Of a stretch of 64,000 nucleotides of DNA, positions 7,901 through 27,406 are shown piece after piece. Location of the stretch: IMG/VR virus record IMGVR_UViG_3300045988_175246; one strand, given 5' to 3'. The stretch comes from a virus. A model generated the notes under the pieces. It saw only the letters and a list, made by a program, of their open reading frames with translations, did no database searches and was not told the origin of the DNA. The first letter of the stretch is position 1. Each line of letters starts with the position of its first letter. A program made the translations under genes and the position numbers.

Positions 7901-8269
7901 ATGGTCGAAAAACCGAACACATCCCCGGCGAAGCTTCTGACCGCAGACGAGGCTTTGGCCTTGGGAAGACGACCGGAAGTCGTCAACGTCTTGAAAAACA
8001 AGCACGGATGGTGGATAATCTTCACCACCCAATTCCAAGACGAAGTGACCCTCCGCTACCTGCAAGGGGAACGCCCCTCGGAGATATTCCGCAGTCACAA
8101 TCTCGGGCCGGAAATCCTCGGATACAAGCGCATAGAACGTTGCATATACCGGTGGGTCAACCATCCCAGCAACACCCGTATCAGACGTTGGCAAGCGGAA
8201 CACCGCCTATATGAGACGTTGAACAACAAGCAAACCAATCCTGACAAGAAGGAGAACGGCGACAAGTGA
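7901..8269 (+). CDS. small HTH-like DNA-binding protein
   Basis: 122 aa; segment RYLQGERPSEIFRSHNLGPEILGYKRIERCIYRW resembles transposase-type/sigma-like HTH; sits between ParB-like and DnaB genes. Confidence 0.35.
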   Translation: MVEKPNTSPAKLLTADEALALGRRPEVVNVLKNKHGWWIIFTTQFQDEVTLRYLQGERPSEIFRSHNLGPEILGYKRIERCIYRWVNHPSNTRIRRWQAEHRLYETLNNKQTNPDKKENGDK

Positions 8270-9606
8270 GCGTCCCCACACCAATCCACAAGGACATGGC
8301 CGAACAAGTATTGTTGGGGGCCATGCTTCAAGACTCGGAAACGTTGGACAAGGTCATCAGCCAGCTTTCCGAAGAGGACTTCTACCAGCCGACCAACCAG
8401 ACCATCTTCCATAATATAAAGGAACTGGCCGCAGACAATAACCGTGTGGACGCGCAAATGCTGTCCTCGCACATGATGGACAACGGACAGTTGGAACAGG
8501 TCGGCGGCATCGACTACATCGCCCAGCTTGTCGGCTCCGCGCCCACGTCGAACAACAGTGACTATTTCATCAAGCAGATTCGTGACGCGGCCATCCTCCG
8601 CCACATCAACGTGGTCGGACAGCAGTTGCAACAGATGAGCAACGTATCCGACGCGTCAGCCGAAGACGTGCTCAGCAAATCGTTGGAGGCCGCGTTCTCG
8701 TTGGAGGATTCAAGCCGTTCCGAAGACGACGAGTTGAAGACCGCATACCGCCTGTCCGACGAAATGCTCCAACAGTTGGATGAAATGTCACAGAATCCGA
8801 ACGAGTTCGGAACACCCACCGGCTTCCGTGACATCGACGCGTTGACGCACGGATTGCAAGCCGGACAAATGGTCATAGTCGCGGGCCGTCCGGGCATGGG
8901 CAAGAGTACTCTCGGCATGGATTTCGCGCGTAACGCCGCACTGCACAAGGGTCTGCCGACTGTGATTTTCAGTCTGGAAATGGGCGGTCACGAACTCATG
9001 CAACGCATGTTCGCAGCCGAAACAGGCATCCGTCTCGCATCGTTCCAACATCCCGAGAATCTGAACTCGAATGATTGGAACAAACTCAACGCGCTTTGCC
9101 ATCAGGTCGAGAAGGCACCATTGTGGGTTGATGATTCCGCCATCATCAACATGAGCACCATCCGTGCGAAATGCCGTGCTCTCAGCCGCAAGGTCAACGG
9201 GTTGAAGCTTATCGTCATCGACTACCTGCAACTCATGTCCTCCGGTAAAACCGTCGAGAACCGTCAGCAGGAAGTGTCGAACTTCTCCCGCCAATGCAAA
9301 ATGCTCGCCAAGGAACTGCAATGCCCCGTGGTCGTGCTCTCCCAGTTGAACCGTAATGCGGAACAGCGTGCCGACAAGAAGCCGGAACTGTCCGACCTGC
9401 GAGAGTCCGGTTCCATCGAACAGGACGCCGACATGGTGTTTCTCGTGCATCGTCCCGAATACTACGACCGTGAGGAACGTCCGGGCGAAGCCGACGTGAT
9501 TCTCGCCAAACATCGTAACGGGCCTACCGAAACGTTCAATCTCGCGTTCATGGGCGAATGCTCCAAATTCGCGGACATGGCCGCAGGTTTCGAAAACGAG
9601 TTCTGA
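8266..9606 (+). CDS. dnaB: replicative DNA helicase DnaB
   Basis: DnaB N-terminal domain (VLLGAMLQDSETLDKV), Walker A AGRPGMGKST, Walker B LIVIDYLQLM, arginine-finger region SQLNR...LSDLRESGSIEQDADMV; GTG start overlapping the upstream stop. Confidence 0.9.
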   Translation: MSVPTPIHKDMAEQVLLGAMLQDSETLDKVISQLSEEDFYQPTNQTIFHNIKELAADNNRVDAQMLSSHMMDNGQLEQVGGIDYIAQLVGSAPTSNNSDYFIKQIRDAAILRHINVVGQQLQQMSNVSDASAEDVLSKSLEAAFSLEDSSRSEDDELKTAYRLSDEMLQQLDEMSQNPNEFGTPTGFRDIDALTHGLQAGQMVIVAGRPGMGKSTLGMDFARNAALHKGLPTVIFSLEMGGHELMQRMFAAETGIRLASFQHPENLNSNDWNKLNALCHQVEKAPLWVDDSAIINMSTIRAKCRALSRKVNGLKLIVIDYLQLMSSGKTVENRQQEVSNFSRQCKMLAKELQCPVVVLSQLNRNAEQRADKKPELSDLRESGSIEQDADMVFLVHRPEYYDREERPGEADVILAKHRNGPTETFNLAFMGECSKFADMAAGFENEF

Positions 9607-9656: not shown

Positions 9657-11054
9657 ATGCCAACAACATTGATAATCGTCGCGGCAGTGGCGATACTCAT
9701 CATCCTGCTCGCAACCGCAAGCTACAAGGTCTGCCCCGCCGACCGAGTCATGGTCATCACCGGGCCGGGTGGACGACGCTTCGTCTCCGGCGGAAGCGCG
9801 TTCATCATACCCTTCATCATGCGCGTGGACTGACTCTCCCTCGGAGCGGTGCAGTCGCTCCTGAGAACCGACACGCCGATTCCGACGAAGGACGCAATCC
9901 TCATCGACGTGAACGCCGTCGCCAACTTCCAAATCGCATCCGAGACCATGACCGTGGATGAGAACGGTAAACAGGTGAAGGCATTAGAAAACGCCGCCAA
10001 GAACTATCTGAACCAGTCAAAGGAGCGCATGGAGAAGGACGTGACCCAAGTGCTCCTAGGCAAGCTGCGCGAGGTCATCGGCAGGACCGAGTTGAAGGCA
10101 CTCATGGAGAACAGGGACACGTTCGCCGCGACCGTGGCCGAATCCGCCCGCGTGGACATGGAACGGCTTGGCCTTCAATTGACCACGTTCAACATTCAAG
10201 ACTTCACCGACCGTCAGAACGTCATCGCCAACATGGGCGCTGAAATGGCCGCCGAAATCAGCCGGAATGCGAAGCTCGCGTCCATCAACGCGGAACAGGA
10301 CGTGGCCGTCCGTCAGAACCAGCTCGACCTGAAACGAGCCGAACTCCAATCCATCTCCGACAAGGCGCAGGCCGAGGCCGACGCGGTGAAGGGCATCACC
10401 GCCGCCGAACAGTCCAAGACTCTCAAGGTCAAGGAGCAGGAGGCGGAAATCGCCGCCGCCGAAAAGAAGGCAGTCCTCGAACAGAAGAACGCCGAAATCG
10501 AAGAGCAGAAACTGAACGCGACCATCCGCAAGAAGGCCGACGCCGACAGATACGCCGCCGAACAGCAGGCCGACGCGCAAGTGTACACGACCCGCAAGCA
10601 TGCGGATGCGGAACTGTATCTACGCCAGCAGGAGGCTCAGGCCACCCAATCCACCGCCGACGCGGACGCGCACGCGACCGAAGTCAAAGGCAAGGCCGAG
10701 GGTTCCGCCGCACAGGCCAAGGGTGTAGGCGAAGCCGAGGCAATCCGCGCCCAAGGCCGAGCCTACAATGCGATGAACAACACGTACATCCTCGCCCAAC
10801 AGTACATTCAGATTCTCCCCGACATGGTTCGAGCCGCCGCCGAACCGCTCACCAAGGTTGACCACATCACCATGTATGGCGACGGAAACAGCACGAAGCT
10901 CGTGGGCGACACGGTGAACAGTGTGAGCCAGTTGAGCGAAGGCTTGTCGCAATCCTTGGGCATCGATTTGAAAGCGTTGCTGAACAGTATGGTGTCCGGT
11001 CATGCCGCCGGTTCCGCACTAAGTGGGAAAGGTTCCGAACAGTCCGGAAACTAA
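9657..11054 (+). pseudogene. flotillin/band-7 (SPFH) family gene interrupted by a single in-frame TGA at 9831-9833
   Basis: 9657..9830 encodes the TM helix + YKVCPADRVMVITGPGGRRFVSGGSAFIIPFIMRVD; after TGA the same frame continues LSLGAVQSLLRTDTPIPTKDAILIDVNAVANFQI... through the coiled-coil flotillin body (ORF 9849..11054 in the same frame). Confidence 0.7.
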
Positions 11055-11072
11055 CCTGTTCAGGGACATGTT

Positions 11073-11108
11073 GGAGGGTAGGGGAAGCCATGCCCTCCTT
11101 ATTTTTAA
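11073..11108 (+). terminator. rho-independent terminator after flotillin gene
   Basis: GGAGGG-tagggga agccatg-CCCTCC followed by TTATTTTT. Confidence 0.5.
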
Positions 11109-11233
11109 GGGCTGAAAGCGTTCTTTCAAGGTTTTTAATGAGGGTGCGTGCGGTATATTAGGAATGTAATCCGATATTGACCCCGTTCGATGAATGAACG
11201 CGCGCCGGGTCTAGTAAGGAAAGGAAAACAAAG

Positions 11234-12937
11234 GTGAAAACCAAAAACCTGTTGAAGGCAACGGTCGCCACGCTTGTGGCCGGTGCCATGGGTTTGGCTG
11301 GAGTCGGCTCCGCCATGGCGGCTGATACTCGTGTTGACGAGTCCAAGCTTGGTGATGGTGCGGCTGCTCGTCAGACGTTGACCGTCGCTGCTAATGGTGA
11401 TATTAGCAATCGCACGTTGAAGGCTGTGCCGCTCGCCTACTATTCGTATGCGCAGACTGATGGCACTAATATTACCGGCTTTGACCTGATTGACGCGGGC
11501 AAGGCTTCTGCTATTGCTGACGCACTGACGAAAGCCCATATTGACACCCAGTCCAAGAAAGACCAGACTGCCGGATACCGATATAATGCGTCCAATCCGA
11601 TGGTGTGGGTCGTGCAGAATCTCCTTGATTCCGAGAACAGTCCGTGGGCTGGCAAGCTTCGTGACTTCATCGACCAGTTGAAGAACGAGGACGCCGTCAC
11701 CGGCGACAAGGGCACCGCGTTCGCCAAGGGCGCCGACGCCAAGCATATGACCGCATCCGTCCGTCCGGGCGTGTATGCGGTCGTGGACGCCACCAAGACC
11801 GGTCAGGCGTCCATCGTCATGTTCAACGGCACCGGCATCGACGGCAAGACCACGTTGAAGAACGGTGAAAAGACCTACACGCTGGGCACCGTGGACTATA
11901 AGGTGCATGACGCTGAAGTGACCAAGGGTATTACCGGTGTTGAGGATGGTGCTACGGATGAGAAAATCAGTAGGGAGAAGGAATACGCGGTAGCCAAGAC
12001 CTCCATCGGCAAGAAGGTCTCTTTCAAGATGACCAGCAAGGTGCCTGTTTGGACTGGCTACGACCACTACTATTATGCGCTCAACGATACGTATACTAAT
12101 GGCCTGACTTTCAACCCGGATAGTGTGAAGGTCACTGTCGGCGGTAAGGCTTTGACTGCTGGCAAGGATTACAAGGTGACGACCGAGACGGGCAAGTTCC
12201 ATATCCTGTTCGCCCCGACCGCTGACAATTCTTCCGACATCATCGCCGCCAAGACCACGTTCCCGGTCGGTACGCCCGTGCTTGTCACTTATGACATGAC
12301 CGTGAACAAGAACGCCCACGTGGACGGTGTTGACACCAACACGAGCGAAGTCGAATACTCCCACAATCCGAACAACGTCACCGACCATCAGAAGACTCCG
12401 GGCGACACCACTTACGTGTACGTCGGCAAGTTCACTCTGACCAAGACCGATACGAACAACGCTCCGCTCGCGGGTGCCATGTTCCACATCAAGGACGCCA
12501 AGAACAATATCGTCAAGTTCGTCAAGGTGAATGATAACGAGTATCGTGTCGCCGACTCGACTGAGGCCGCTACCGCAAGCGCCGACATCACCACCACCGA
12601 TAAGAACCATGGCGTCATCACCTTGAAGGGCCTGTACGGTGACTACACGGTGACCGAAACCAAGAGTCCGTTCGGTGGCAGCATTCTGCCGGAGTTCACT
12701 CTGACCGTTGGCGTGGCCCAGTCCCAAGACCATAACACCAGCACTTCGTCCCTCACCGCATTCGGACAAGATTCGAACAAGCTGGCCTCCAAGAGCAGTG
12801 ACGATGGAGTGACCGTCATCAACGCCCGCAACATCGCTGACATGCCGAAGACCGGTGCGGTCTGGCTGTCCATCTTCGGCGTGATGACCGTCCTGTTGGC
12901 TGGCGCTTCCGCCCTGCTGCTTCGTCGCAAGGCGTGA
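11234..12937 (+). CDS. sortase-dependent pilin / LPXTG-type surface protein (sorting motif MPKTG)
   Basis: Signal peptide MKTKNLLKATVATLVAGAMGLAGVGSAMAAD; E-box-like YTVTETKSPFGG; C-terminal MPKTG + hydrophobic helix + RRKA tail; GTG start. Confidence 0.8.
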   Translation: MKTKNLLKATVATLVAGAMGLAGVGSAMAADTRVDESKLGDGAAARQTLTVAANGDISNRTLKAVPLAYYSYAQTDGTNITGFDLIDAGKASAIADALTKAHIDTQSKKDQTAGYRYNASNPMVWVVQNLLDSENSPWAGKLRDFIDQLKNEDAVTGDKGTAFAKGADAKHMTASVRPGVYAVVDATKTGQASIVMFNGTGIDGKTTLKNGEKTYTLGTVDYKVHDAEVTKGITGVEDGATDEKISREKEYAVAKTSIGKKVSFKMTSKVPVWTGYDHYYYALNDTYTNGLTFNPDSVKVTVGGKALTAGKDYKVTTETGKFHILFAPTADNSSDIIAAKTTFPVGTPVLVTYDMTVNKNAHVDGVDTNTSEVEYSHNPNNVTDHQKTPGDTTYVYVGKFTLTKTDTNNAPLAGAMFHIKDAKNNIVKFVKVNDNEYRVADSTEAATASADITTTDKNHGVITLKGLYGDYTVTETKSPFGGSILPEFTLTVGVAQSQDHNTSTSSLTAFGQDSNKLASKSSDDGVTVINARNIADMPKTGAVWLSIFGVMTVLLAGASALLLRRKA

Positions 12938-13071
12938 GATTGGAGATTGGAATACTGCCGTATGAGAAAACTTTTCTGACCGTTTGACGGTTGGAAAAGC
13001 ATGAAATGTTCCGCTTGGCGTGTCGGGAACCCAAATATCGACACGCCACCTTTTAGATTCTTTATAACCGC

Positions 13072-13977
13072 ATGGGAGGGGTTTTGGGAAAACATACGGC
13101 GAAACCGAAAGGCTTGGGAAATCGAGCCATAGCGGGACTTCTCTGCCTAATCCTATCCGCCCTGTCCGGAACCATCCCATTCATTCTCATGATTTCGAAC
13201 AGCAGCCAATCCAACCGGTTGACCGACTCTCACGCGCAAGCCGTGGGAAACACTGACGTGAAACGAATCGCCCAAGAGTATGCGGACGCGCAAGCCTACA
13301 ATCAACGCCTATACGAGGAAGGCCAGCCTATTCTTGGTGAGGCGGAAGACCCTTGGACGGGCGTCAACAAGTCCGAATCGGACAACACGTATCGGAAGCA
13401 ACTATCCACCCCCAAGGATGGGGTCATGGCTACCATCAAATATCCACGCTTGGGCATCAACCTGCCCATCCGGCATGGCACGTCGCAAAACGTGTTGGCC
13501 GCTGGAGCCGGACACTTATATGGTTCCAGTCTCCCCGTCGGTGGCAAGAACACGCATACTGTCATATCCGCGCACACGGGTTTGGCCGACCAGCTCATGT
13601 TCGACAAGCTGCGAGGCTTCGGCAGTGAAGCCAAAAAGGGAGACGTCTTCTATCTGATAACCGCCGGACATATGCTCGCCTACAAGGTCACGGATATTAG
13701 CGTGGTAGACCCATCCGATTTCACCAAACTGAAAATCGTCGCCGGAAAAGACCTCGCCACACTTCTAACCTGCACGCCATACGGCATCAACAACAAGCGG
13801 CTCCTAGTGACCGGCACGCGCACCAGCATGCCGCACCCTGCACCCAGACCCGAAAACGCGCCGAAAGACCACACGAACCAATGGCTCATGCTGTACGTCG
13901 GCGGATTCTGGCTTGCGGTAATCATCATCACCATTCTCATCATCCGTAGAAAAAACCACGCAAAGAAGGAACACTAA
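13072..13977 (+). CDS. srtC: class C (pilus-associated) sortase
   Basis: N-terminal TM, VISAHTG histidine motif, TLLTCTPYG cysteine motif, C-terminal TM lid; stop overlaps start of next gene (TAATGA). Confidence 0.85.
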   Translation: MGGVLGKHTAKPKGLGNRAIAGLLCLILSALSGTIPFILMISNSSQSNRLTDSHAQAVGNTDVKRIAQEYADAQAYNQRLYEEGQPILGEAEDPWTGVNKSESDNTYRKQLSTPKDGVMATIKYPRLGINLPIRHGTSQNVLAAGAGHLYGSSLPVGGKNTHTVISAHTGLADQLMFDKLRGFGSEAKKGDVFYLITAGHMLAYKVTDISVVDPSDFTKLKIVAGKDLATLLTCTPYGINNKRLLVTGTRTSMPHPAPRPENAPKDHTNQWLMLYVGGFWLAVIIITILIIRRKNHAKKEH

Positions 13978-16900
13978 TGAGTATTCTCAAAAAGCATGTG
14001 GCACATCCGGTAGCATTATTGGCCGCAATCGCCACACTGGCATCCGGCCTGACATGCATGACCAATTCGGTAGCCTCTCCGAAAGCGCATGCGGACGAGT
14101 TGAAGCCCGCATATGCTACTGCGAAAATCGTTAAGAAAGCCGACGGTACGGGGCATGGCACGAGTTCGCAAACGTTCGTGAATTCGAAGAACGGGTTCGC
14201 CACGGGCGATGATTCCCCTACCGATGGCGTGGTCGCATCCGGTGATACGGTCGAATATTCTCTCACGTTGAACTTCAACGCGGCGGGCAAGCGTACCATC
14301 AACGTGAAGTTCGACTTGGATGACGCGCCGTATTTGCAGACTGCTGACGGTGGTGGCTTCTGCCAGCCGGGACAACTCGTCACCGCGAAGAAAAACAGTG
14401 ACGGCTCCTGCTCCTACACGGTTCCAGCCGGTGGCGTGGAAACCATGACCCAAACCTTCTATCTGAAAGCAAAAGACACGGGAGGCTTGGTCAAGCCGGG
14501 TCAGATTCCGAAAATCGTCGTCGCCCGCGAAGGTGGAACGTCAACCACGTATCGTACGGATGAGCTGACTGTAGTATCCGCTCCGGCGGCTGACTTGGTC
14601 ATTGACAATGGTGGCAATCCGGTGAAAGGTCAATACTCGTATGAGCATCGTACTTATTGGAGTCAGAACACCGATGCGACCGGCGATTTCACTATTCGTG
14701 CCGACGCGTTGACCTATCCGGGTTATTCGTCCACGAAGGGCGCGTCCACCAGCATCGATTGGACTACCAAAGTGGATATTTCCGACTTCCCGCAGGGCAC
14801 CGTGTGGACTGTAGGCGGTCAGCGGATTACCCGTAACAGTGATAAAGAACAGTATCTGACCGTATCCAGTGGCAAGAACGGTGCGGCGGTGACAATCAGC
14901 TACAGGATTCCCGCCGGAACCGACGCGCTCAAAAACATGAAAGAAGGAGACGTCAAATATTACGATGTCCACCTTGTTCCCGACGAAACCGTGTTCAGCG
15001 TCAAAGACGATAACGGCGACGCACTGTTGAACATGGGCAAAGGTGGAGAACCCGGCTGGAACATTGGACGGGACAAGAGCACCTACAACAAGGATACGGG
15101 TGCCCGCGTCGGCTACCCGTATGCGAACAATGACTGGTCACGAGCCATCATCCAACGGCTCAAGCCGACTCCAGCTGGCAAGATTCCACTGTTCGGCAAA
15201 GGACTGCAACGGCCTAACACTGCGTCCAAGACCATGTTCGACAAGGAGAATCTGACGTTCGACGCCGCCGAAGGCAAAGCCGACATCTACCATTACTATT
15301 CCGACGGTTCCGGCGACACCGTGTCCCGTGGAACGCAAGTCAAAACCATTTTGGAAATGTATGCGGCGAACGTTACGGCGGACAAGCTTAAAAACACTAC
15401 GCCGACCATGCAGGACGAGTGGGATAATACGCGCATGCGGTGGGATGGAAGCTTGGAAGTCACCCAGAACGGCGCTCCGGTTTCCGACTACAAAGTTCAA
15501 TGGGCTGATAGCAAAGACAATTGGCATGACGGGGAACCATCCGACACGGACGCTCCGAACGTCAAGAAGATTCGGGTGACGTTCAACCCCGACACTTTGA
15601 CTTTGGGAAAGGATGCGCCGAACGTTCAGGTCACGTTCAACACGCTCGCCATAGCCGACGTGTCCAAAGGCAATGTGGAAGCTTTGGATACGCTGACCGC
15701 ATGGCTTACCGAAGACGATAAGGCAAGCGTCACCAATTGGGTGTGGATTGCCAAGCCGGTAGACCCGACCACCAGTATCGACATCAGTCTGAAAGCCTAC
15801 GATGGTGAAGGCAATCAAGTGTATGCGAACAACAGTTCCAATCACCCGTCCGGAAGCGCAGTCGATTTGACTCCCGGCATGCGAGTGGATTATACGGTCA
15901 CGGAACAGTTGCGCACCATTCTCCTGTCCAATACAAGCATGACGCCGACCATCACGGTGCCGAAACCGAAAGGCTTGTACAATCCGACCTGTGATGATTC
16001 GTTCTGGCAGATGAAAGTGGACGGGAATAATCTCGTGTTCACGCCACGTTCCGGCAAAGTCACGCCGGAAGTAGACCGTATAGGGTCGGCCACTTTGCCT
16101 GACCTGCATTTCAGTGGCATCGTATCCAATCTCGCCACCGGGACTGTGACCGCCAGTGCGAATATGAGCGTGGACGTTGACGAGAACGGCGCATTGCAAG
16201 CCCAAACCATCAAAAGCAATACGCCCAGCGTCCCATTCCCTGTCTCCAATGCGGAAACCAACAGTGGCATCATGCGTGTGAAGACCACGAAGGCTGAAAT
16301 CAGTGACCCGCTTACTTGGGAGTTCAACGTGTACGGCAAGGGCGACGGCCATACCGGCACCATGGATAGCATGCTACTGCTTCCTGCGAATGGTGATGAG
16401 AAGTACGTGCAGGACAAGCTGGTCGAATATGAGCGTGGATACAGCAACTATCATGGCTCCTACGAACTGACCCAGCCCGTCACGGTCAATATGGACAATT
16501 CGACCAGTACGACCGTCTACTATTCAACCACCACCGGAAAGAAGTCGGATAATCCGGCTGACTACGAGTGGAAGACATGGGATGAATTGTCCGCCACCGA
16601 GAAGAAGAACATCACCGCCATCCGACTGACCAGCACTGTCGTCGCGTCCGACGATAAACTGTCCTATTCGGCGGTGAACGGCACCATCACGCTCACCCCA
16701 TCCGACAATGTGAAAGACGACAAGTACACGCTGTGGCTTGGTCGCAACTATTATTCCGACGCTTCCGACAAACCGGCGGGCAACCAGCCGTGGCCTGACG
16801 TGGCGAAGGTAGTGGCCGGTAGTATCAGCGGTACCGTCTGGTGGGATAAGGATGAGAACACGCTCATCGGAGACGGTGAGGAGCACATCGAAGGAGTGGA

Positions 16901-19367
16901 AGTCACCCTCGGCAAGCAGGATTCAAGCGGAGGCTGGCAGACCGTCAAAACGGTGAAGACTGACAAGGACGGCCATTACGAGTTCGACCTGCTCCACTCC
17001 GGCACCTACCGCACTTCGGTGAAACGCAACACTGGCACCAGTACGGGTGATGGCGTGCAGACGCAGGTCAAAACCTACTACAACAAGCTGGAAGACGTGG
17101 TGAACACGCGCAGCTGGTCGGACAAAATCAAGTCCAACGCGAAAGACACGTCCGACGACATCCACCTAGGCATCGGCGCAGACCAGAAGAACGTGGATTA
17201 CGGTTACGCGAAACCAGACCCGAAAGCCACCGTGGACAAAACCGTCACCGGCACCAGTTGCACTGATACGAAATGCGTTATCAACTGGGATGTCAAAGTA
17301 CAGAATTCTGGCACTAGTCGTTTTGACACGTCCAGTGTCGTTTCTGACCGTATGAGCGCTGATGTGCATGATGTTTCCGCTACCGCCGGTACGGTTTCCA
17401 TCGAGTCTGGTGGCGCGAAGCAGGTTGCGACGAGTGGCGACCATAAGTTTGTGTTGACGAGTGAGGGCTTGTTGTATGCGTGGGGTAACAACCAGTATGG
17501 TCAATTGGGTTTCAAGCCTGACTCCACGAACACGAGTACTCCGGTGAACGTGAACAAGCCGACCATCATCAACGGTAGTTGGCTGAAAGTCGCCGCCGGA
17601 GGCAAGCATTCCGCCGCCATCAGCACGGACGGACACTTGTATACGACTGGTTGGAATGGTAGCGGCCAATTGGGTACGGGTGATACGGATAATCGTGACC
17701 AGTGGACTCTAGTCGCAGAAGATAAGACGTTTGTTGACGTGGCGTGCGGCAACCAGTTCACTGTGGCGATAGCAAGTGACGGCACCTTGTGGGTGGTCGG
17801 AAAAGTCAGTTCCACCTCGTATTCAACGTGGACGCAAATCCAGTCGGGTAAGACGTTCACGCAGGTCAGCGCCAGCACGTACAGGTGGGTCGCGTTGACG
17901 TCCTACGGCGGTTGTGTGGTGGACGGCGACGAGTTTTTCTCTATTGGTTTCACGCAAGTTGTCGCCTCATTCGGCAACGCCTACGGGTTGACTGACGCGG
18001 GTACAGTGATAGTGCTCGTCGGCGGAGGTGATAGCGGTATCGACCAGTCCAATGTGTCTAATCTGAGGTACATCACCCGTATCGGTGGCGGATACAACAC
18101 TTTCTACGCCATCGACAAGAACCAACACTTGTGGGCGGCTGGCTGGAATGGTGACGGCCAATTAGCGAACGGTAAGACCGGTACAGGCAGGTATTGGACC
18201 AACGGCAGTACGAGCGGCAACGCGGATATTGTTTCCACGCCAATCGATACGGGCATTACCGCATCCGACGTTGCGGGCGGCGACCGTGACGTGCTCATTG
18301 TCGGCAAGCAGGTCATGATTGCGGGCTTCGACCCGTATGGTGACGGCAAGACGGGTGGCGCACGTTCCACCGGTTTGAAGGGAATGGTCGTATCGTCCGA
18401 CCCGACCGCCGTACCGGTCGAACCGTTGAGCGAGTCCACGGAGAAGGGGTTGACGACCCGCACGTACAATCTGCCGTATGCGATTGAGTCGGGCGGCTAT
18501 GTCATCTACCATTTCACTGGCACCGTTGACCGTGAAACTGCGGATACTACCAAGTGGTCTCCAACTGAGAAAGACGAGTGGGTCAAGAAGAATACGAAGA
18601 CCATTCTCAACCAAGCATGGTTCACCTCCGAACACACGCCATACTCAGGCACGCCACATGCAAGCGGCAAAACCAAGCCGGACCCTCCGAACGCATCCAA
18701 ACTGGATACGAACACGAATGACGTGACCGGCAATCCGACATGCCGCACCGACACCGACTATACGGAGGAAGGACACCAACACTGGTTCAGCACCAGCGAC
18801 GAAGACTCCTGCGACCAAGTCGGCACCATCATCACACCAACCACCAGCGCGAAGAAACTCGGCACCATCAGCGGCCTGTATTGGGAGGACACGGACAAGG
18901 ACGGTATTCGAAGCGACAACGAGTCGAACCGGTTCGCCAACCAGACCGTAATCCTGTACGACAAGAACGGCAAGCAGGTGGCATCCACCAAGACCGACAA
19001 GGACGGCAAGTACAAGTTCGAACACTTGGACGCGGACGGCGACCAGTACACCATCCAATTCAGCCGCGTCGCCCACCAAGAGTTCACCAAGCCGGATGCG
19101 AACGACATGGACATTCCGAATGACGCGAGTTCCACCGACTCCGACGCGAACACGAGCGACGACAAGTACGGTGAATCCACGTTCACCATCATCCTCACAC
19201 AGGATAAGCCGGACAAGGAGAATGTGGACGCGGGCGTCCTACCAGAAACATGGATGATGAGCATGCCCCACACCGGCATGGGCTTACTGTTGCCAATCCT
19301 CATACTCGTCAGCATTCTGGGACTCGTCACCGCAATCATCCTGTTGAGAAAGGAAGACCGTAAGTGA
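13977..19367 (+). CDS. large cell-wall-anchored adhesin (1796 aa) with RCC1-like beta-propeller repeats and Cna-B/SdrD-like domains; sorting motif MPHTG
   Basis: Signal peptide; RCC1-type repeats (LYAWGNNQYGQLG, HLYTTGWNGSGQLGTG, HLWAAGWNGDGQLANG) at ~17.4-18.2 kb; Cna-B-like GTVWWDKDENTLIGDGEEHIEGVEVTL and GLYWEDTDKDGIRSDNESNRFANQTVILYDKNGK; C-terminal MPHTG + TM + RKEDRK. Confidence 0.8.
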   Translation: MSILKKHVAHPVALLAAIATLASGLTCMTNSVASPKAHADELKPAYATAKIVKKADGTGHGTSSQTFVNSKNGFATGDDSPTDGVVASGDTVEYSLTLNFNAAGKRTINVKFDLDDAPYLQTADGGGFCQPGQLVTAKKNSDGSCSYTVPAGGVETMTQTFYLKAKDTGGLVKPGQIPKIVVAREGGTSTTYRTDELTVVSAPAADLVIDNGGNPVKGQYSYEHRTYWSQNTDATGDFTIRADALTYPGYSSTKGASTSIDWTTKVDISDFPQGTVWTVGGQRITRNSDKEQYLTVSSGKNGAAVTISYRIPAGTDALKNMKEGDVKYYDVHLVPDETVFSVKDDNGDALLNMGKGGEPGWNIGRDKSTYNKDTGARVGYPYANNDWSRAIIQRLKPTPAGKIPLFGKGLQRPNTASKTMFDKENLTFDAAEGKADIYHYYSDGSGDTVSRGTQVKTILEMYAANVTADKLKNTTPTMQDEWDNTRMRWDGSLEVTQNGAPVSDYKVQWADSKDNWHDGEPSDTDAPNVKKIRVTFNPDTLTLGKDAPNVQVTFNTLAIADVSKGNVEALDTLTAWLTEDDKASVTNWVWIAKPVDPTTSIDISLKAYDGEGNQVYANNSSNHPSGSAVDLTPGMRVDYTVTEQLRTILLSNTSMTPTITVPKPKGLYNPTCDDSFWQMKVDGNNLVFTPRSGKVTPEVDRIGSATLPDLHFSGIVSNLATGTVTASANMSVDVDENGALQAQTIKSNTPSVPFPVSNAETNSGIMRVKTTKAEISDPLTWEFNVYGKGDGHTGTMDSMLLLPANGDEKYVQDKLVEYERGYSNYHGSYELTQPVTVNMDNSTSTTVYYSTTTGKKSDNPADYEWKTWDELSATEKKNITAIRLTSTVVASDDKLSYSAVNGTITLTPSDNVKDDKYTLWLGRNYYSDASDKPAGNQPWPDVAKVVAGSISGTVWWDKDENTLIGDGEEHIEGVEVTLGKQDSSGGWQTVKTVKTDKDGHYEFDLLHSGTYRTSVKRNTGTSTGDGVQTQVKTYYNKLEDVVNTRSWSDKIKSNAKDTSDDIHLGIGADQKNVDYGYAKPDPKATVDKTVTGTSCTDTKCVINWDVKVQNSGTSRFDTSSVVSDRMSADVHDVSATAGTVSIESGGAKQVATSGDHKFVLTSEGLLYAWGNNQYGQLGFKPDSTNTSTPVNVNKPTIINGSWLKVAAGGKHSAAISTDGHLYTTGWNGSGQLGTGDTDNRDQWTLVAEDKTFVDVACGNQFTVAIASDGTLWVVGKVSSTSYSTWTQIQSGKTFTQVSASTYRWVALTSYGGCVVDGDEFFSIGFTQVVASFGNAYGLTDAGTVIVLVGGGDSGIDQSNVSNLRYITRIGGGYNTFYAIDKNQHLWAAGWNGDGQLANGKTGTGRYWTNGSTSGNADIVSTPIDTGITASDVAGGDRDVLIVGKQVMIAGFDPYGDGKTGGARSTGLKGMVVSSDPTAVPVEPLSESTEKGLTTRTYNLPYAIESGGYVIYHFTGTVDRETADTTKWSPTEKDEWVKKNTKTILNQAWFTSEHTPYSGTPHASGKTKPDPPNASKLDTNTNDVTGNPTCRTDTDYTEEGHQHWFSTSDEDSCDQVGTIITPTTSAKKLGTISGLYWEDTDKDGIRSDNESNRFANQTVILYDKNGKQVASTKTDKDGKYKFEHLDADGDQYTIQFSRVAHQEFTKPDANDMDIPNDASSTDSDANTSDDKYGESTFTIILTQDKPDKENVDAGVLPETWMMSMPHTGMGLLLPILILVSILGLVTAIILLRKEDRK

Positions 19368-19378
19368 AAGGAACAAAA

Positions 19379-20344
19379 ATGGGCATGCACGCCAGTAACC
19401 GTGTGAACCGCCACTTGGGACAACGAATCCTCGCCACCCTCGCCATCGTGGCGGCGGTCTGCGGCGGACTCATCACCGGTAGCGCCATCGCTTCGGAACC
19501 GGCCAAATGTTCGACCGGCGTGGACAAGGTCTGCTATGCGGGCTACAACGCCGCAGGATTGAAGCAGATTGCCGACGATTTGAGCGACAAGGGCAAGGGA
19601 AGCGCTTACTATGCGGAAATGGAGGATAATCTGACTAAGGGCACGCAAGGCTCGCTCACACTGTCGGACGGTTCCAATCTTCCATTCCGGCTCATCGGCA
19701 TCCTCCACGACGACAAGGCTGATGGTAGCGGCAAAAAGGCTGGCTTGACGTTCATGGCATGGAACGCGTTACCGAAAGCGTACTGCATAAACGGCGTCAT
19801 GCCAACCGACAACACGACCACCTGCACGAACGGCTACACCAACAAGGGCGGATGGCGCGACAGTAATCTCCGTCAATGGATGAACAATGGGGAAATCTGG
19901 AACCAATTCCCCACCGACTTCCAAAACAACGTGACCACCGTATTGAAACAAACCAACAACATGGACTACGGAAACACTTCCGGCTCCGCCGCATCCGCCA
20001 CAGCAGACAAGGTATGGCTCGTATCCTACAGGGAACTCGTACCAACCATATACGACGGGTGGAAAAGCTCTAATGGATTCCAAGCGTTAAGTCAGGAGGG
20101 AAGCCAATACGAGTATTTCCAAGGCAAGGTGATGCACAACTATTCAAACAATAATATTCTGTCTGGAATCTACGGAACCGTTTCCGGTTCAGCACTCTCC
20201 GGTGCCAACAGCCTCAGTTGGTGGGAGCGTTCGCCCGACCCGAGCTACAACTACGATTTCCTCCTAGTGTACTCGGGCGGCGACCCCAGCTGCGACTACT
20301 TTGCTGGCTATCGCTACTCCGTTGTCCCCGCTTTCTCCTTCTAA
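19379..20344 (+). CDS. DGR target (variable) protein, secreted; variable region at C-terminus
   Basis: Signal peptide (ILATLAIVAAVCGGLITGSAIAS); last ~50 codons are the VR homologous to the TR at 20965-21117; ORF track start 19364 (GTG), probable ATG 19379. Confidence 0.75.
   Translation: MGMHASNRVNRHLGQRILATLAIVAAVCGGLITGSAIASEPAKCSTGVDKVCYAGYNAAGLKQIADDLSDKGKGSAYYAEMEDNLTKGTQGSLTLSDGSNLPFRLIGILHDDKADGSGKKAGLTFMAWNALPKAYCINGVMPTDNTTTCTNGYTNKGGWRDSNLRQWMNNGEIWNQFPTDFQNNVTTVLKQTNNMDYGNTSGSAASATADKVWLVSYRELVPTIYDGWKSSNGFQALSQEGSQYEYFQGKVMHNYSNNNILSGIYGTVSGSALSGANSLSWWERSPDPSYNYDFLLVYSGGDPSCDYFAGYRYSVVPAFSF
20178..20330 (+). repeat. DGR variable region (VR)
   Basis: ~150 nt near-identical to 20965-21117; almost all mismatches fall where the TR has A (aac->agc/ctc/tac/gac/ggc etc.). 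Confidence 0.8.
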
Positions 20345-20357
20345 TCCCCCATCTTTA

Positions 20358-20379
20358 GGGGTGGGGTTCATCCCACCCC
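20358..20379 (+). promoter_or_regulatory. GC-rich hairpin immediately 3' of VR/stop codon (DGR homing-associated hairpin candidate)
   Basis: GGGGTGGG-gttcat-CCCACCCC, 8-bp perfect stem, 14 nt after the stop codon. Confidence 0.5.
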
Positions 20380-20450
20380 GCTAAAACATCACACGAAAGA
20401 AGCCCCTATGACAGTACCCACCAGCAAGCGGACAAAAGCAAAAAGCGAAT

Positions 20451-20930
20451 ATGCGAACCAAGCGAGAATCGTACTCTACGCCACCAGAAACCTCTTCCGG
20501 AAAATGGCCCAAAAGCCGAGACAACATCGAAACCATACACGTCATGCACATCGCCTACGACATGTACACAGCCGCCTACAGCGCCGACACCATCTACGCG
20601 AGCACCCTCGAAGAGCATAAGATGAAACTGCAACTCTTATGCAAGGCCCAAGGAATGCTGAACGCACTCTCCGGCCTCGTAGACGACTGGATAGACTATC
20701 CACCACGAGAACGCGACATGAAAGCCTACCAGAACAGTCAGGAAGGCGACCCCACCTACAATCCCGTAATCAAGGAGAAGAAATTTGTCAACTATGCGGG
20801 CACACTCTACAAAGCCATGGGGGTGTTCACGGGGGCAGTCCGATACGAGCGAGACCAGTTGAAGAAAGCCAAAACCGTCGAGTCAAAGACCACCACTAGA
20901 ATGGACACTTGGGTTCAACCCCAAATATAA
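20451..20930 (+). CDS. avd: Avd-like accessory variability determinant (helical bundle protein); possible frameshift near 5' end
   Basis: Located between VR and TR as in canonical DGRs; helical basic protein; an upstream overlapping frame (20408..) encodes a more Avd-like N-terminal helix (SEYANQARIVLYATRNLFRKMAQKPRQH). Confidence 0.55.
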   Translation: MRTKRESYSTPPETSSGKWPKSRDNIETIHVMHIAYDMYTAAYSADTIYASTLEEHKMKLQLLCKAQGMLNALSGLVDDWIDYPPRERDMKAYQNSQEGDPTYNPVIKEKKFVNYAGTLYKAMGVFTGAVRYERDQLKKAKTVESKTTTRMDTWVQPQI

Positions 20931-20964
20931 CTAAACAAAACCGGCCATATCCAAAATGGTGTTT

Positions 20965-21117
20965 CCGTTTCCGGTTCAGCACCCTCCGGTGCCAACAACA
21001 ACAATTGGTGGGAGCGTTCGCCCAACCCGAACAACAACAACAATTTCCTCCAAGTGAACTCGAACGGCGACCCCAGCTACAACAACAATGCTAACAATCG
21101 CTACTCCGTTGTCCCCG
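20965..21117 (+). repeat. DGR template region (TR)
   Basis: AAC/AAT-rich copy of the VR (ggtgccaacaacaacaattggtgggagcgttcgcccaacccgaacaacaacaacaat...); ORFs 20909..21094 and 21054..21239 over it are non-coding. Confidence 0.8.
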
Positions 21118-21311
21118 ATTCCTCTTACCAAAAACTAACATCAGATAGGCCAGTAGCCCAATGGGTGAAAGCCTCCCGAAGGGGAAGGGGATATGGTCGA
21201 ATGCGCTGCCCCTCGAAAAATGGGTTGCGCGTGAAATAGGTTGAGGGAGATATTAAGACTGTCGGAAACGACGGATACTCGCCCCTTAAGCTGGGCGTCC
21301 AACATCATTGC

Positions 21312-22541
21312 ATGTCTTGGGTTGTTGCCGACGACCTGCCCTCAACCATTCTTTTCTCTTTCCCTAGTGAAGGAAGCATTAAAATCGTGAATGCGAGTCA
21401 AAGACGTAGAAGACGCCAACGCAGACTGCAACAACGCTCGGATGATAAGTACAGGAAGCTCCACCGTTACATCGACTTCCAACAAACATTCGGATTCGAC
21501 GCGCTCTACCAAGCCGCAAGAAAATGCAAACGCGGCGTCACGTGGAAAAACACAGTGTTGAACTTCGACAATAGGCGTGCCGTCAACTGTTGGAAACTCG
21601 CCCAAGAATTAGAGGACGGCACATACAAGAAGAGAGCGCCAATCCGATTCGACATTTCCGAACGAGGCAAACTCCGCCACATCAGCGCGGTATCCTTCCG
21701 AGACCGGGTGGTGCAACGCGCCTTATGCGACAACAGTCTCGTCCCCATCGTGGAAAGCCAACTGATATACGATAATGCGGCAAGCCTACCGAAACGTGGA
21801 ACATCGTTCGCCCGAAAACGGTTCGAACTACACTATAAGCGGGCTTTGGGCAAATGGGAGCATCCGTATGCTGTCATCTTCGACTGTTCCAACTATTTCG
21901 GAAGTATCAGCTCCCAACGAGCGTTCGATATGATTTCCACCCTGTACCGGAGCATCGCCCGCACCGGACGGGAGAAGCAGGATGTGGAACGGATTCTAAC
22001 CGTATTGAGAATCTTCGTATTGGACGAACCACACTTAGGGTTAGGTAATCAGACGAGCCAAACCATGGCTATCTGGTATTTGAACAAGGTTGACCACTGG
22101 TGCATGTCGCAAGGATTCTACGGACGGTATATGGATGATGCCTACTGTTTCTGCGAGAATCGTGAACAGGCCGAACGTGTGTTGGCCGGTTATGAGCGGC
22201 GTGTCAACCAATTGGGATTGCGGTTGAACAAGCATAAGACCCGCATAGTGGACTGTCATACCGGTCAACTCACATTCCTGAAACGCGTATACAGTGTACA
22301 GGATGACGGCAGTATTCTTATCCGCATGCACCATAAGGCGTTGCGTGCAAGCCGACGGCATGCGTGTAACCTTATCTGCTCATATGATGGCGTGCATGTG
22401 GGATTGAGGACAGTTCAGGATTCTTGGACGAGCCATGAGAGCACACTGTCGGGTCTAACTCACCGTCGTGGACTGTGCGCTCGGGAGAAAGCGTGGTATC
22501 GGAGGCATTGTGAAATGCGGAAGCTGGCTTTTCACCCGTGA
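21312..22541 (+). CDS. DGR reverse transcriptase
   Basis: RT motifs: HISAVSFRDRVVQRAL, AVIFDCSNYFGSI, YGRYMDDAYCF (YMDD catalytic box), LNKHKTRIV. Confidence 0.85.
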   Translation: MSWVVADDLPSTILFSFPSEGSIKIVNASQRRRRRQRRLQQRSDDKYRKLHRYIDFQQTFGFDALYQAARKCKRGVTWKNTVLNFDNRRAVNCWKLAQELEDGTYKKRAPIRFDISERGKLRHISAVSFRDRVVQRALCDNSLVPIVESQLIYDNAASLPKRGTSFARKRFELHYKRALGKWEHPYAVIFDCSNYFGSISSQRAFDMISTLYRSIARTGREKQDVERILTVLRIFVLDEPHLGLGNQTSQTMAIWYLNKVDHWCMSQGFYGRYMDDAYCFCENREQAERVLAGYERRVNQLGLRLNKHKTRIVDCHTGQLTFLKRVYSVQDDGSILIRMHHKALRASRRHACNLICSYDGVHVGLRTVQDSWTSHESTLSGLTHRRGLCAREKAWYRRHCEMRKLAFHP

Positions 22542-22865
22542 TATTCCGGACTTTCCAGATTGTGTGGTGGAGGGGCGCAATCTGCTGGAAGCTTTGGATG
22601 GGACGAGAAAAAGATTGGCCGTCCGATTAGCAGAAATGGTGGCGCAGAATCTTCCGCTTCCTCAAGAGAGTCTTTTGGATGAGATTTCGTGAGGCTTGGA
22701 TTGTATCGTATTTCACTCGGCATGCTTGTCGGCTAGTTTTTCTTCCCGGCTTGGTGTTACACTGGGTTTACTTGCATTTCCTTCCTCGGGACTTCGCCCA
22801 TGTGGGGCTTTAGAGGTTATCAGCGCATTGGTCAGAGTATGCCGTTTGAGTGAAAGGAAACTGTC

Positions 22866-23495
22866 ATGGCAGGTTTTGATGATATTACGGTCACTCGCAG
22901 TGATGGCCGTTTGAAGGTTAAGGCTCCGTATAATCCGTTGTTCGCCCGTCGCTCCCGCGCGTTGGGCGGAACGTTTGATGACAAGTTGAAGACTTGGACG
23001 TTCAATGTTCGTGTGGAAAGGCTGGTGTTCGAAGCTTTAGACAAATACTTCTGGTGGCATAAGGGCGTGGACGCTGAAAAGCGCGTCACTCTAACCATTG
23101 ACCCCTACGACTACTTGTACGCGTACTCCAAGCAGGATAGCGACATTATCTGGTTCGCTGGTCGAATCCTAGTCGAAAAATATCAGCCCGACCGTCCACC
23201 GCGCATGATGCCGAATGTGGCTCTCGTGGATGGCATGTGGCCTAAAACCGGCTTGTATACGGGGTTGAATCTCAGTCCCGACAAACTCCGATTATTGGTA
23301 TGGGATGTTCCCACCAGTTTTCTGGAACGATTGTCGTCCGGCAAGTATGAGTTGTCTGAGCCGGATGGTGACACGTTGACTGCGGTTGACGTTCGTATTC
23401 AGGCTGTGGAGGAACGGTTAGGCCGGTTGAGGGAACTCCGAACCCGACTCGCCTCTAATAGTGAGGATGTGAATGATGCTCTCCGTGCCGATTGA
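22866..23495 (+). CDS. hypothetical protein
   Basis: 209-aa ORF downstream of the RT. Confidence 0.45.
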   Translation: MAGFDDITVTRSDGRLKVKAPYNPLFARRSRALGGTFDDKLKTWTFNVRVERLVFEALDKYFWWHKGVDAEKRVTLTIDPYDYLYAYSKQDSDIIWFAGRILVEKYQPDRPPRMMPNVALVDGMWPKTGLYTGLNLSPDKLRLLVWDVPTSFLERLSSGKYELSEPDGDTLTAVDVRIQAVEERLGRLRELRTRLASNSEDVNDALRAD

Positions 23496-24480
23496 TGGTC
23501 AAGTCCAGTCGCGTCTCATTCCGCCCACGTTCGTGGAAGACAACATCAGCGACATGTTCAAGGCTGTGGACGCCGGACACAATATCGTCGTGACGGCAGT
23601 GGACGAGTACGGTAATCGAACCAGTATTACCACGCCGGATAATGTGAATCATGACATGCTGGGGCGTTCTCTCGAATTCGCGTCCCATCCCGTACTGATG
23701 CGGAATGTGCGCCGTTGGATGGTTTGGCTGTTGCAAGCGCAATACTGCAAGGATTACAAGTGGGATACGAACAGGCTTGGAGGTTGGATGGAAGTGTTGG
23801 GTTTACCAGCCGACCTTGATGTTCCCGTAACGGAGGAACATTTACGCGTGTTGAAGCCTGTGTTTAACAAGGATGATGCCGACCCGTATCGGCTTGTCGC
23901 ACGATACGACAAGCAACATTATGCTTCATGCACCCTCGGCACTCTCATACGGTTAGCTGAACAAACCACGCCGAACTATGCCTTGAACAATCCCACCCGC
24001 TGGTGTCAAACCGACCGATACCGCAAACTCAGCATCCAACCCAATCCGAAAGAAAACTGGGACGGAATGGACAGGGTACGTGACTGTTGGAGCGGATGCG
24101 AATGGGCATACCCCGCATTGGAACGCTACTATAATCCGATTCGACTATTACGCGACGAATACCGGCGGGGAGGACTACCTGAAACCTTCCACTATCCAAT
24201 ACACACGACAAGAGGCGAATACCGGTTGGCGAAAGGACAAATCAGCCCCCACGCAACAATCCTCCTCAACGGCAAGCCGGTAGGACTCATGTTCAGCGAC
24301 GATTGCGAGGAACCATTCACCGACCGGATACCACCCGAATGGTGTGCCACACCCTTACCGGAAAACTATAAGACCACGCCACTCAACCGAAACATTCCCG
24401 TAAACGGCGAATTCAAACCATCATTCCAGCAAGCCATGCTGGGATTCGTGGAATGGTATGAGAAAACGCACAAGGGATAG
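23473..24480 (+). CDS. hypothetical protein
   Basis: 335-aa ORF, start overlaps previous gene. Confidence 0.45.
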   Translation: MMLSVPIDGQVQSRLIPPTFVEDNISDMFKAVDAGHNIVVTAVDEYGNRTSITTPDNVNHDMLGRSLEFASHPVLMRNVRRWMVWLLQAQYCKDYKWDTNRLGGWMEVLGLPADLDVPVTEEHLRVLKPVFNKDDADPYRLVARYDKQHYASCTLGTLIRLAEQTTPNYALNNPTRWCQTDRYRKLSIQPNPKENWDGMDRVRDCWSGCEWAYPALERYYNPIRLLRDEYRRGGLPETFHYPIHTTRGEYRLAKGQISPHATILLNGKPVGLMFSDDCEEPFTDRIPPEWCATPLPENYKTTPLNRNIPVNGEFKPSFQQAMLGFVEWYEKTHKG

Positions 24481-24587
24481 CAAAAGAGGAAAGCCCCTTA
24501 GTTGAGGGGCTTTCTGGTAAATGTCAAATGGTGGCAAGCTTGAATTCTTCCAGCTTGTCCATGCTAAACCGCCCAGAACAACAAAAC

Positions 24588-25745
24588 CTAGTTCTCCGAG
24601 CGTTCGCTGATATTCTCCCGCATCTGCAAATAAGCCCCATGCTCACGCAAGTAATCCCGCAAATACGGCATTTTGAAAGCGACTTCACCGTAACCGACCG
24701 GCTCAATCAAATCGTTCTCAATCAGCTTGGTTCTATACACGTTGGCGAACTGTGGCGAACGGTTCAACCGACGGGCGATTTCACCTGTATTCGACACCGT
24801 ATCATCCACCGACATGGCAAGCAGATAGTTCACCGCATGGGATGGCAAGCCATGCAATGCTGGGGCGTGAACCATATCCCCTAGTTTGGCTTGGGCTTTT
24901 TCGATACCCTTGACCGCGTCCTCCTCGGTCACTTGATTCACATGGCCGTTGGTTTCGGAAACCCTCCAAGCCCAATAACCCACCAGCTGAATCATGAACG
25001 GATAACCATGAGTGGCATTGGTCAACCGTATCAACGTTTCCATCCCGGCTTTCTTCTCCCCGCTGAAAGACTCCTCGAATGCTTTCAGAACCTTCTCCGT
25101 TGGCACGGAACCCAAATGATACCGTTCTGCCCGTTGAAGGAAGGTGATGGCATTATCCGACAGCACGTCGTTCACGGCGGACGGTAACCCAGCGAAAATG
25201 AACGCGATGTTCCGTCCTTCGCGGATAAGATGTTGCACGGCAGTGGACAAAGCTCTGATTTCGTCCATGGAACCGGATTGCACTTCGTCCAATGTGATGA
25301 GAATGCCCTGCTTGCTTTCATTCATCTTGTCCAAACGTTTGCCGACCGCTTGACGTAGCGTCAAGGAACGTTCCTCATTGTGTTCGAGTTCGATTCTCCC
25401 CAAACTCAGTTCCAGATTCCCTACATCACCTTTCAACCCGACGCTAGGCATGTCGTAGGCGGATATGCGAGTCGTGTCCTTGCCGGTAAGTGCGTCCACC
25501 AGTCTTTGGGTGAAACCTCTATCGGCGCTTTCGTTATAGACTTTCCAGCCTTGCTTCTGCGCGTGTGTTCCTAACGTGTCCAGCATGACTGTTTTCCCTA
25601 CACCTCTGGCTCCGGTGAGGAACATCAGCCGTCCGGGGCTTCCTACACCGTCTTTCAGCGCATAGTCGAAGTCTTCGATGATTTCTTCTCGTCCGACGAG
25701 TATCGGCGGGATACGTCCGGCGGTTGGTTTGAACGGATTGGTCAT
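24588..25745 (-). CDS. ATP-binding protein (AAA-type ATPase domain + C-terminal winged-helix-like region)
   Basis: Walker A FLTGARGVGKTVML, Walker B ILITLDEVQ; probable start MTNPF (internal Met of ORF 24588..25808). Confidence 0.7.
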   Translation of the reverse strand: MTNPFKPTAGRIPPILVGREEIIEDFDYALKDGVGSPGRLMFLTGARGVGKTVMLDTLGTHAQKQGWKVYNESADRGFTQRLVDALTGKDTTRISAYDMPSVGLKGDVGNLELSLGRIELEHNEERSLTLRQAVGKRLDKMNESKQGILITLDEVQSGSMDEIRALSTAVQHLIREGRNIAFIFAGLPSAVNDVLSDNAITFLQRAERYHLGSVPTEKVLKAFEESFSGEKKAGMETLIRLTNATHGYPFMIQLVGYWAWRVSETNGHVNQVTEEDAVKGIEKAQAKLGDMVHAPALHGLPSHAVNYLLAMSVDDTVSNTGEIARRLNRSPQFANVYRTKLIENDLIEPVGYGEVAFKMPYLRDYLREHGAYLQMRENISERSEN

Positions 25746-25981
25746 GTCTGTTTCCTTGATTTTATAATAATTATAATAAGTATAATACTTTAAAAAAGCA
25801 TGTACCAAGGGGTTAAGTTCGATAATAGGCAGCTTTGTCGAGAGTAGAGGTTGACGACCTAAACGGAAGTGGTTTAAAATAGATTCTTGTTTGAGATAAG
25901 GTCACTTTTCTAAAAGGCATTGAGGGACGGTTTCCGTTTTGGTCTCCGTCCCTCTTTTTTGTATTGTTTCCACGCTTGAAG

Positions 25982-26004
25982 TATACTGGAATCGTTCACA
26001 TAAA
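25982..26004 (+). promoter_or_regulatory. conserved promoter/leader motif copy 1
   Basis: TATACTGGAATCGTTCACATAAA; RBS+ATG 26 nt downstream. Confidence 0.5.
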
Positions 26005-26029
26005 AAAGTTGAAAAACCAAGGAGAAAAA

Positions 26030-26344: not shown

Positions 26345-26446
26345 ACGATTCCGTAACAGTACTCTTCCTTCCCTTATAGGTTGGAGGGGTTTGTTTTTTC
26401 AGAGGTTGTTTATAGTTTTTTGGGTGTGTCGTTTTTTCGCACGCTG

Positions 26447-26469
26447 TATACTGGGATTGTTCACACAAA
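26447..26469 (+). promoter_or_regulatory. conserved promoter/leader motif copy 2
   Basis: TATACTGGGATTGTTCACACAAA; ATG at 26497. Confidence 0.5.
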
Positions 26470-26496
26470 AGATAAAAGAAAACCAAGGAGCAAAAA

Positions 26497-27321: not shown

Positions 27322-27383
27322 CTTTTCAGCCCGCTTCCTTGCTTTGGGGAGTGGGCTGTTTTTGTTTTTTCCTACAAACATGG

Positions 27384-27406
27384 TATACTGGGATTGTTCA
27401 CACAAA
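27384..27406 (+). promoter_or_regulatory. conserved promoter/leader motif copy 3
   Basis: TATACTGGGATTGTTCACACAAA; preceded by hairpin CAGCCCGC...GGGCTG+T-tract; ATG at 27435. Confidence 0.5.

Follow-up and report, generated by a model that had tools for sequence, protein, structure and literature searches.

Bacterial FloT/YuaG (Bacillus subtilis) and eukaryotic flotillin-1 and flotillin-2 share an N-terminal anchor, an SPFH (Band_7) domain, a long Ala/Glu-rich coiled-coil and a conserved C-terminal block, and the same organisation is recognisable in a gene of the window, by which is meant the whole 64,000-nucleotide stretch of DNA analysed here (IMG/VR record IMGVR_UViG_3300045988_175246). 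Unlike FloT, however, this flotillin scores far below the equivalog cut-off, is carried by a mobile element beside DnaB and a pilus/adhesin cluster, and in the window breaks off at codon 59. The locus also resembles the parallel loss-of-function polymorphisms of host-associated bacteria and of plasmid cargo, in which many independent null alleles lie at the tips of the tree, long-term purifying selection is strong and the neighbouring genes are untouched; it differs from typical parallel loss in that one codon, that of Trp59 (W59), has been struck repeatedly by two different transitions. Read-through of UGA in E. coli, where the Trp-tRNATrp ternary complex competes with RF2 (PMC10570021), offers a further parallel, as the UGA of the window likewise stands where insertion of Trp would restore the native protein. 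Unlike the E. coli case, no conserved context or structure is found here and tRNATrp would be of no use to TAG alleles of this codon. Literature searches returned no description of the element, nor of flotillin nonsense alleles in bacteria. The TGA of the window is quite probably a recent natural loss-of-function allele, one instance of a recurrent inactivation of the gene in tip lineages.

The element itself is best compared with the pMP7017 family of megaplasmids of B. breve and B. longum, with which it shares its size class and a VirB4-like ATPase (63-66% identical) followed by a multi-domain cell-wall hydrolase. The 886-aa ATPase, which carries an AAA_10 domain and weak VirB4/TrbE matches, is 66.5% identical over 99% of its length to that of pMP7017 (NZ_KM406416.1) and about 63% identical to those of the B. 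longum megaplasmids, and the window also encodes TnpB, an RNA ligase and a reverse transcriptase. In contrast to the pMP7017 family, in which no match to the flotillin was found, the contigs are listed as viral in IMG/VR, and nucleotide searches with the flotillin region and with positions 1-25000 and 40000-64000 against phage and plasmid collections gave no DNA-level similarity to a deposited plasmid or phage. Related contigs reach 213-231 kb (up to 217 kb for the relatives listed as viral), and a 95%-identical protein is known from a B. adolescentis isolate. The element is extrachromosomal and approximately 220 kb in size, is probably a conjugative megaplasmid and distant relative of pMP7017, and has Bifidobacterium adolescentis as its probable host; the most fitting label is that of a so far undescribed megaplasmid-like element from the B. 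adolescentis group. Downstream of the flotillin cargo lies a diversity-generating retroelement (DGR), whose template repeat is 84% identical to the variable repeat at the 3' end of its target gene; in nearly all mismatches the template has A and the target has G, C or T. A second flotillin of 462 aa, 59% identical to the present one (L092, positions 8001-9389, and L093), is very abundant in gut assemblies and likewise lies among genes of mobile-element type (for a PemK toxin, UvrD and RecD2 helicases, a dUTPase and a GIY-YIG nuclease); flotillins may thus travel recurrently as cargo on mobile elements of Bifidobacterium. Across the pilin gene the longest ORF runs on the minus strand; it matches no family and is probably just a shadow, due to high G+C, of the plus-strand gene, in which the pilin domains are clear.

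Table 1. Features of the window, with positions counted from its first nucleotide.
Feature	Position	Strand	Remarks
DnaB helicase	8266..9606	+	Control gene; ends on TGA; DnaB_C profile matches end to end
Shine-Dalgarno-like AAAGGAA	9643..9649	+	Putative, read from the sequence; 7 nt 5' of the flotillin ATG
Flotillin (SPFH) frame	9657..11054	+	ATG 9657 to TAA 11052-11054
58-aa ORF of the ORF listing	9657..9833	+	Upstream piece
Flotillin codons 1-58	9657..9830	+	Hydrophobic N-terminal membrane anchor and start of SPFH; predicted sole product if TGA terminates
Premature stop TGA	9831..9833	+	Next base C; ancestral TGG (Trp59), G-to-A transition at 9833
Remaining flotillin frame, codons 60-465 and TAA	9834..11054	+	SPFH domain, Ala/Glu-rich coiled-coil; no further lesion
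401-aa ORF from GTG	9849..11054	+	Downstream piece according to gene callers; GGAG at 9843-9846, only 2 nt before GTG
Terminator-like element	11073..11106	+	Hairpin, then UUAUUUUU, 3' of the flotillin TAA; MFE -19.5 kcal/mol, z-score only -1.2; no call by a consensus scan
681-aa ORF	11135-13180	-	Lies across the pilin gene
SpaA-type pilin	11234-12937	+	Downstream cargo
Sortase	13072-13977	+	Downstream cargo
1796-aa adhesin	13977-19367	+	Downstream cargo
DGR	19364-22541		Whole retroelement
DGR target (DUF6273)	19364-20344
DGR variable repeat	about 20178-20344		At the 3' end of the target
Small ORF of the DGR	20451-20930		In Avd position
DGR template repeat	about 20965-21131
DGR reverse transcriptase	21312-22541
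TnpB / IS605 OrfB-type gene	31936-33378	-	480 aa; Cas12f1-like TNB domain
VirB4-like 886-aa ATPase and the 778-aa protein after it	56012-61858		Interval for both; 778-aa protein with glucosaminidase, lysozyme, CHAP and NlpC/P60 domains

Translation of the flotillin frame revealed a single internal stop, TGA, with 58 sense codons before it and 406 between it and the terminal TAA, and the ORF listing gives the gene as two pieces of 58 and 401 residues. The joined frame matches the Pfam Band_7/SPFH family (PF01145) over residues 29-211 (E = 1.3e-10; 42 bits against a cut-off of 23.6), the solved human flotillin-2 and flotillin-1 align to residues 25-440 (E = 6e-30 and 1e-23, respectively), and PF15975 (Flot) is precomputed on many of its close homologs. 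A reading made from the sequence alone (hereafter the sequence-only reading) had already described a flotillin (SPFH) gene with a single in-frame TGA, and the translation, the Pfam match and the human flotillin alignment bear this out. Scored with the NCBIfam FloT model (NF058507), the joined frame reached 169.5 bits versus an equivalog cut-off of 700, which identifies the plasmid flotillin by profile as a member of the family and not as a FloT equivalog. The full-length frame is interrupted at codon 59 in the window and is whole in relatives. A frame arising by chance was ruled out because a search of 5.8 billion proteins identified a protein of 465 aa (P0001) that departs from the joined frame only by its W at position 59 and by a single V/M exchange.

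The codon that preceded the stop was identified from eight syntenic loci that encode P0001 (L001-L008), the flotillin genes of which differ from that of the window at 7-12 nucleotides. Position 9833 is A in the window and G in all eight of these intact loci. The V/M difference stems from the adjacent pair 10580-10581 (CAA GTG versus CAG ATG), and all other differences between the window and the P0001 loci fall on third codon positions of genes whose proteins are otherwise identical. Trp59, encoded by the only Trp codon of the gene, occupies the same site in all Bifidobacterium homologs down to 57% identity, within the motif ..R(V/R/C)DWLSLG.., while distant homologs (35-40% identity) carry E, K or I at this position. 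Because the eight syntenic loci have G at 9833 and the Bifidobacterium orthologs have W, the event was a change of TGG to TGA. The sequence-only reading had proposed a CGA-to-TGA history, on the ground that the stop falls where flotillins usually have a basic residue; neither proposal holds for this lineage, in which orthologs carry TGG and eight intact contigs carry G at 9833. Among the groups compared, Arg at position 59 was found in the human flotillins only, and this residue probably explains the expectation of a basic residue.

The reality of the TGA allele was assessed from further assemblies. Fourteen contigs encode precisely the same 401-aa downstream product as the window, and the 10 of these that were retrieved all have TGA and show zero differences from the window across the gene. 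These sister contigs come from ERZ5048xx assemblies and from DRR0423xx Logan assemblies, that is, from several samples and two assembly sources, and the two flanks that were compared are 99.90% (L083, over 21 kb) and 99.97% (L085, over 19.8 kb) identical to that of the window. Since ten contigs carry a zero-difference gene and near-identical flanks accompany it, the TGA allele of the window belongs to a clone that is present in several samples. An error of sequencing or assembly confined to the window record, which the sequence-only reading had listed among its options and which would need only the one base that separates the window from the intact allele, is refuted to the point of having next to no probability since 10 further contigs of different sample origin share this base, as do two other haplotypes. 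The frame 3' of the TGA is undamaged in the window clone, which fits a recent origin of the stop and would also fit continued use of the frame.

Among the loci compared, the closest relative of the window is L006, which is 99.5% identical over 20 kb and has an intact gene. Another locus, L009, diverges from the window a short way past its flotillin gene, where genes for an IS1595-type transposase, RelB and a methyltransferase follow. Within the window clone, four contigs of 3-5x coverage (L082, L084, L087 and L090) have a 1-bp insertion at 11582 that divides the 567-aa pilin into pieces of 117 and 445 aa, and L087 has a second pilin insertion at 12212; the pilin is intact in the window and in L083. 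These low-coverage contigs suggest that the pilus gene is also being lost within the window lineage.

Stops at codon 59 are not confined to the window clone. Across 67 loci, 18 of which came from searches that selected one allele or another, the codon is TGG in 51, TAG in 13 and TGA in three. The 58-aa N-terminal peptide, which is the product of the TGA and the TAG alleles alike, occurs in 489 blocks of the public collection, a figure that cannot be set against the 51 blocks of P0001, as a short peptide merges many downstream variants; the 10 contigs listed for the peptide comprise eight with TAG and two with TGA. Within 20-90 nt of the codon, TAG is found on four local haplotypes and TGA on two (the window with L015, and L011); among the loci compared, the TGA carriers other than the window are 97.5-98.2% identical to it. 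The TAG of L067 and L073 lies on the background of an allele lineage of approximately 87% protein identity, in which the intact sister locus L038 reads TGG. The codons next to this TAG, before and after it, are unlike those found elsewhere (GTC GAC TAG CTG TCG versus GTG GAC TAG CTC TCC). At a minimum, these haplotypes would require two origins of TAG and one of TGA, and at a maximum about seven hits on the codon. Recombination is evident from mosaic haplotypes, and some of the seemingly independent origins could be short conversion tracts.

The opportunity for such stops was estimated by counting the single-transition routes to a stop codon in the gene. There are 39, of which 37 are C-to-T changes in Gln or Arg codons and two are G-to-A changes, both at W59. 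In the unselected loci (from IMG/VR and metagenome scans), W59 accounts for two or three of the six or seven nonsense events (binomial p of about 0.004-0.03 under equal transition rates). The excess is suggestive, and possible reasons for it are a G-to-A hot spot, for example at a methylated cytosine of the opposite strand, some preference for truncation very early in the gene, or a special outcome of a stop at exactly this codon.

Lesions were also found elsewhere in the flotillin gene. Further nonsense changes are CGA to TGA at R40 (L025, L028 and L059), Q214 to TAG (L036) and Q181 to TAG (L064, a low-coverage contig), and in L024 the start codon ATG is changed to CTG. The 5' end of the gene is replaced in L068, a deletion of 147 bp lies inside the flotillin gene of a related element, and there are at least eight different 1-bp indels (gene nucleotides 114, 203, 240, 310, 542, 832, 876 and 1044). 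Errors in the public assemblies could account for some of these indels, but the same contigs have intact DnaB, orf122 and pilin genes. Deletions of 6-20 kb that begin in the 3' half of the flotillin gene were seen among L035, L036, L041 and L075 (window positions 10715 to 16633, 10692 to approximately 19836 and 10156 to 29827). With them go the pilin and sortase genes and the adhesin gene, in whole or in part, so that in these related elements cargo of the interval 11234..19367 is lost together with the 3' part of the flotillin gene. Two fusion proteins in the protein database, P0020 and P0047, look like products of such deletions. A phase-variable contingency locus is not supported by the type and position of the lesions, which are point substitutions, indels at eight scattered positions and large deletions.

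The frequency of these lesions was compared with that in neighbouring genes. Among 42 unselected loci, with four low-coverage contigs and partial genes set aside, the flotillin gene is disrupted in 15-17 (about 40%) versus none for DnaB (Fisher p of about 2e-6 to 1e-5). Over a larger set, 58 loci have an intact 446-aa DnaB, the only disruptions of which are in two contigs of about 1.5x coverage, orf122 is intact in 59/59 loci and the pilin gene is disrupted in three. Intact flotillin alleles, by contrast with this rate of disruption, give a dN/dS of 0.03-0.08 for every pair with a dS of at least 0.05 (dS up to 0.22), values that indicate strong long-term purifying selection on the gene. The lesions themselves, as judged from the allele comparisons, sit on terminal branches of the tree. 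Between the main TAG clade and the intact L022 and L056 there is 0-1 SNP per 1.3 kb, and the private SNPs of this clade are two nonsynonymous and zero synonymous; the stop lineages are too young for a dN/dS test. Second lesions have been acquired in L041/L075 and in L067/L073.

Several readings in which the TGA does not abolish the protein were weighed against inactivation. TGA would be harmless if it were reassigned or suppressed in the element or its host and read as selenocysteine or as Trp, the latter being its meaning in genetic code 4 and also the residue that it replaces here. However, no true stop is commoner in the window than TGA, which ends 38 of 75 crude ORFs at a coding density of 90% under code 11, and the upstream DnaB terminates on TGA exactly at the end of the DnaB_C profile. 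No tRNA gene was found within the 64-kb window, an Rfam search of the window gave no match, and the codon is polymorphic (TGG, TGA and TAG) and never fixed, all of which leaves reassignment with a vanishingly small probability. Programmed translational read-through is unsupported, given the same polymorphism and the RNA 3' of the stop, which folds no better than shuffled sequence (z = +0.64) and in which no SECIS-like or read-through element was found. A simpler form of read-through would be a leaky UGA, decoded at low frequency by Trp-tRNA(CCA) in competition with RF2, in which case the allele would be a hypomorph that turns native flotillin down. As the ancestral residue is Trp, the product of such read-through would be intact flotillin, and the undamaged downstream frame of the window clone agrees with this; the stop is moreover followed by C, and UGA-C is reportedly a weak termination context in E. 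coli. Yet the commoner allele of the same codon is TAG, which tRNATrp cannot read by the same wobble, frameshifts and deletions occur as well, so that the population pattern is one of inactivation, and the lack of a stimulatory structure in the downstream fold counts against leakiness too. A leaky stop is therefore unlikely, if still a reading with some modest chance of being correct, and inactivation remains the preferred reading.

A functional split gene was considered in the same way. Here the stops at W59 would have been selected because they yield a 58-aa membrane peptide and, from the GTG located 15 nt 3' of the stop with GGAG nearby, a 401-aa soluble protein. Both ORFs are annotated by gene callers on every stop-bearing contig, re-initiation at the GTG is possible in principle, and stops at W59 recur in excess of chance. 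However, the GGAG is separated from the GTG by only 2 nt (Table 1), both lie inside a predicted hairpin, and the 401-aa piece is devoid of the anchor and of the first part of the SPFH domain. Homologs at any distance include none that is split, which also leaves without support the natural two-gene arrangement raised in the sequence-only reading: the distant homologs are all single genes and the split is a tip polymorphism. In addition, the stop is combined with a frameshift in L067 and L073 (W59 TAG) and with a 19.7-kb deletion in L041 and L075, and further lesions are spread along the whole gene. A functional two-piece protein is consequently very doubtful. It is likewise improbable, though slightly less remote, that Trp59 serves as a preferred switch point at which recurrent stops are selected, either for a trickle of Trp read-through or for a two-piece form (58-aa anchor and 401-aa scaffold). 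Were this so, the locus would be a recurring natural polymorphism that tunes the expression of a membrane-microdomain scaffold carried by a megaplasmid of the gut. A same-frame ORF-pair scan of the window for other split genes was too noisy at its G+C content.

Several candidate causes of the stops or of their tolerance were tried and rejected. The DGR 9 kb downstream acts specifically on adenines and depends on homology to its template repeat; the stops, by contrast, result from G-to-A changes, and their site has no such repeat. Template switching at a quasi-palindrome was examined by inspection, and the inverted repeat near W59 predicts TGC rather than a stop. Escape from a restriction site or a CRISPR target was set aside by an argument of parsimony only, as a silent substitution in the adjacent GAC codon would be equally effective. 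Redundancy with a chromosomal paralog is not supported, since the abundant 59%-identical homolog lies in another mobile-looking context and plasmids of the pMP7017 family gave no match to the flotillin. With regard to a role in defence, PADLOC gave no match for the flotillin.

Of the four options offered by the sequence-only reading, a recent nonsense pseudogene is thus the best supported. A recent G-to-A transition turned TGG (W59) into TGA in a cargo flotillin gene, and in the mechanism favoured here termination at codon 59 would leave a 58-residue membrane peptide. The allele is called loss-of-function because a stop at this codon removes most of the SPFH domain and the entire coiled-coil; at best it would be a strong hypomorph, and full-length flotillin would not be expected from it. 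The pattern fits null alleles that emerge again and again in tip lineages and can spread as clones, from which we infer that loss of the flotillin may bring a local advantage or, at the least, be tolerated over short times.

Taken singly, the event is an ordinary nonsense allele, and annotators should mark the gene as disrupted and not as a case of recoding. Taken with the other lesions, it shows a strongly constrained flotillin on a widespread, undescribed element that is repeatedly knocked out in the human gut, often together with the neighbouring pilus/adhesin genes. The natural allelic series (intact, opal, amber, frameshift and deletion) could be used to probe the function of a plasmid flotillin in relation to pili, adhesins, the conjugation machinery and the cost of carriage, and could test why the gut repeatedly tolerates or favours its loss.
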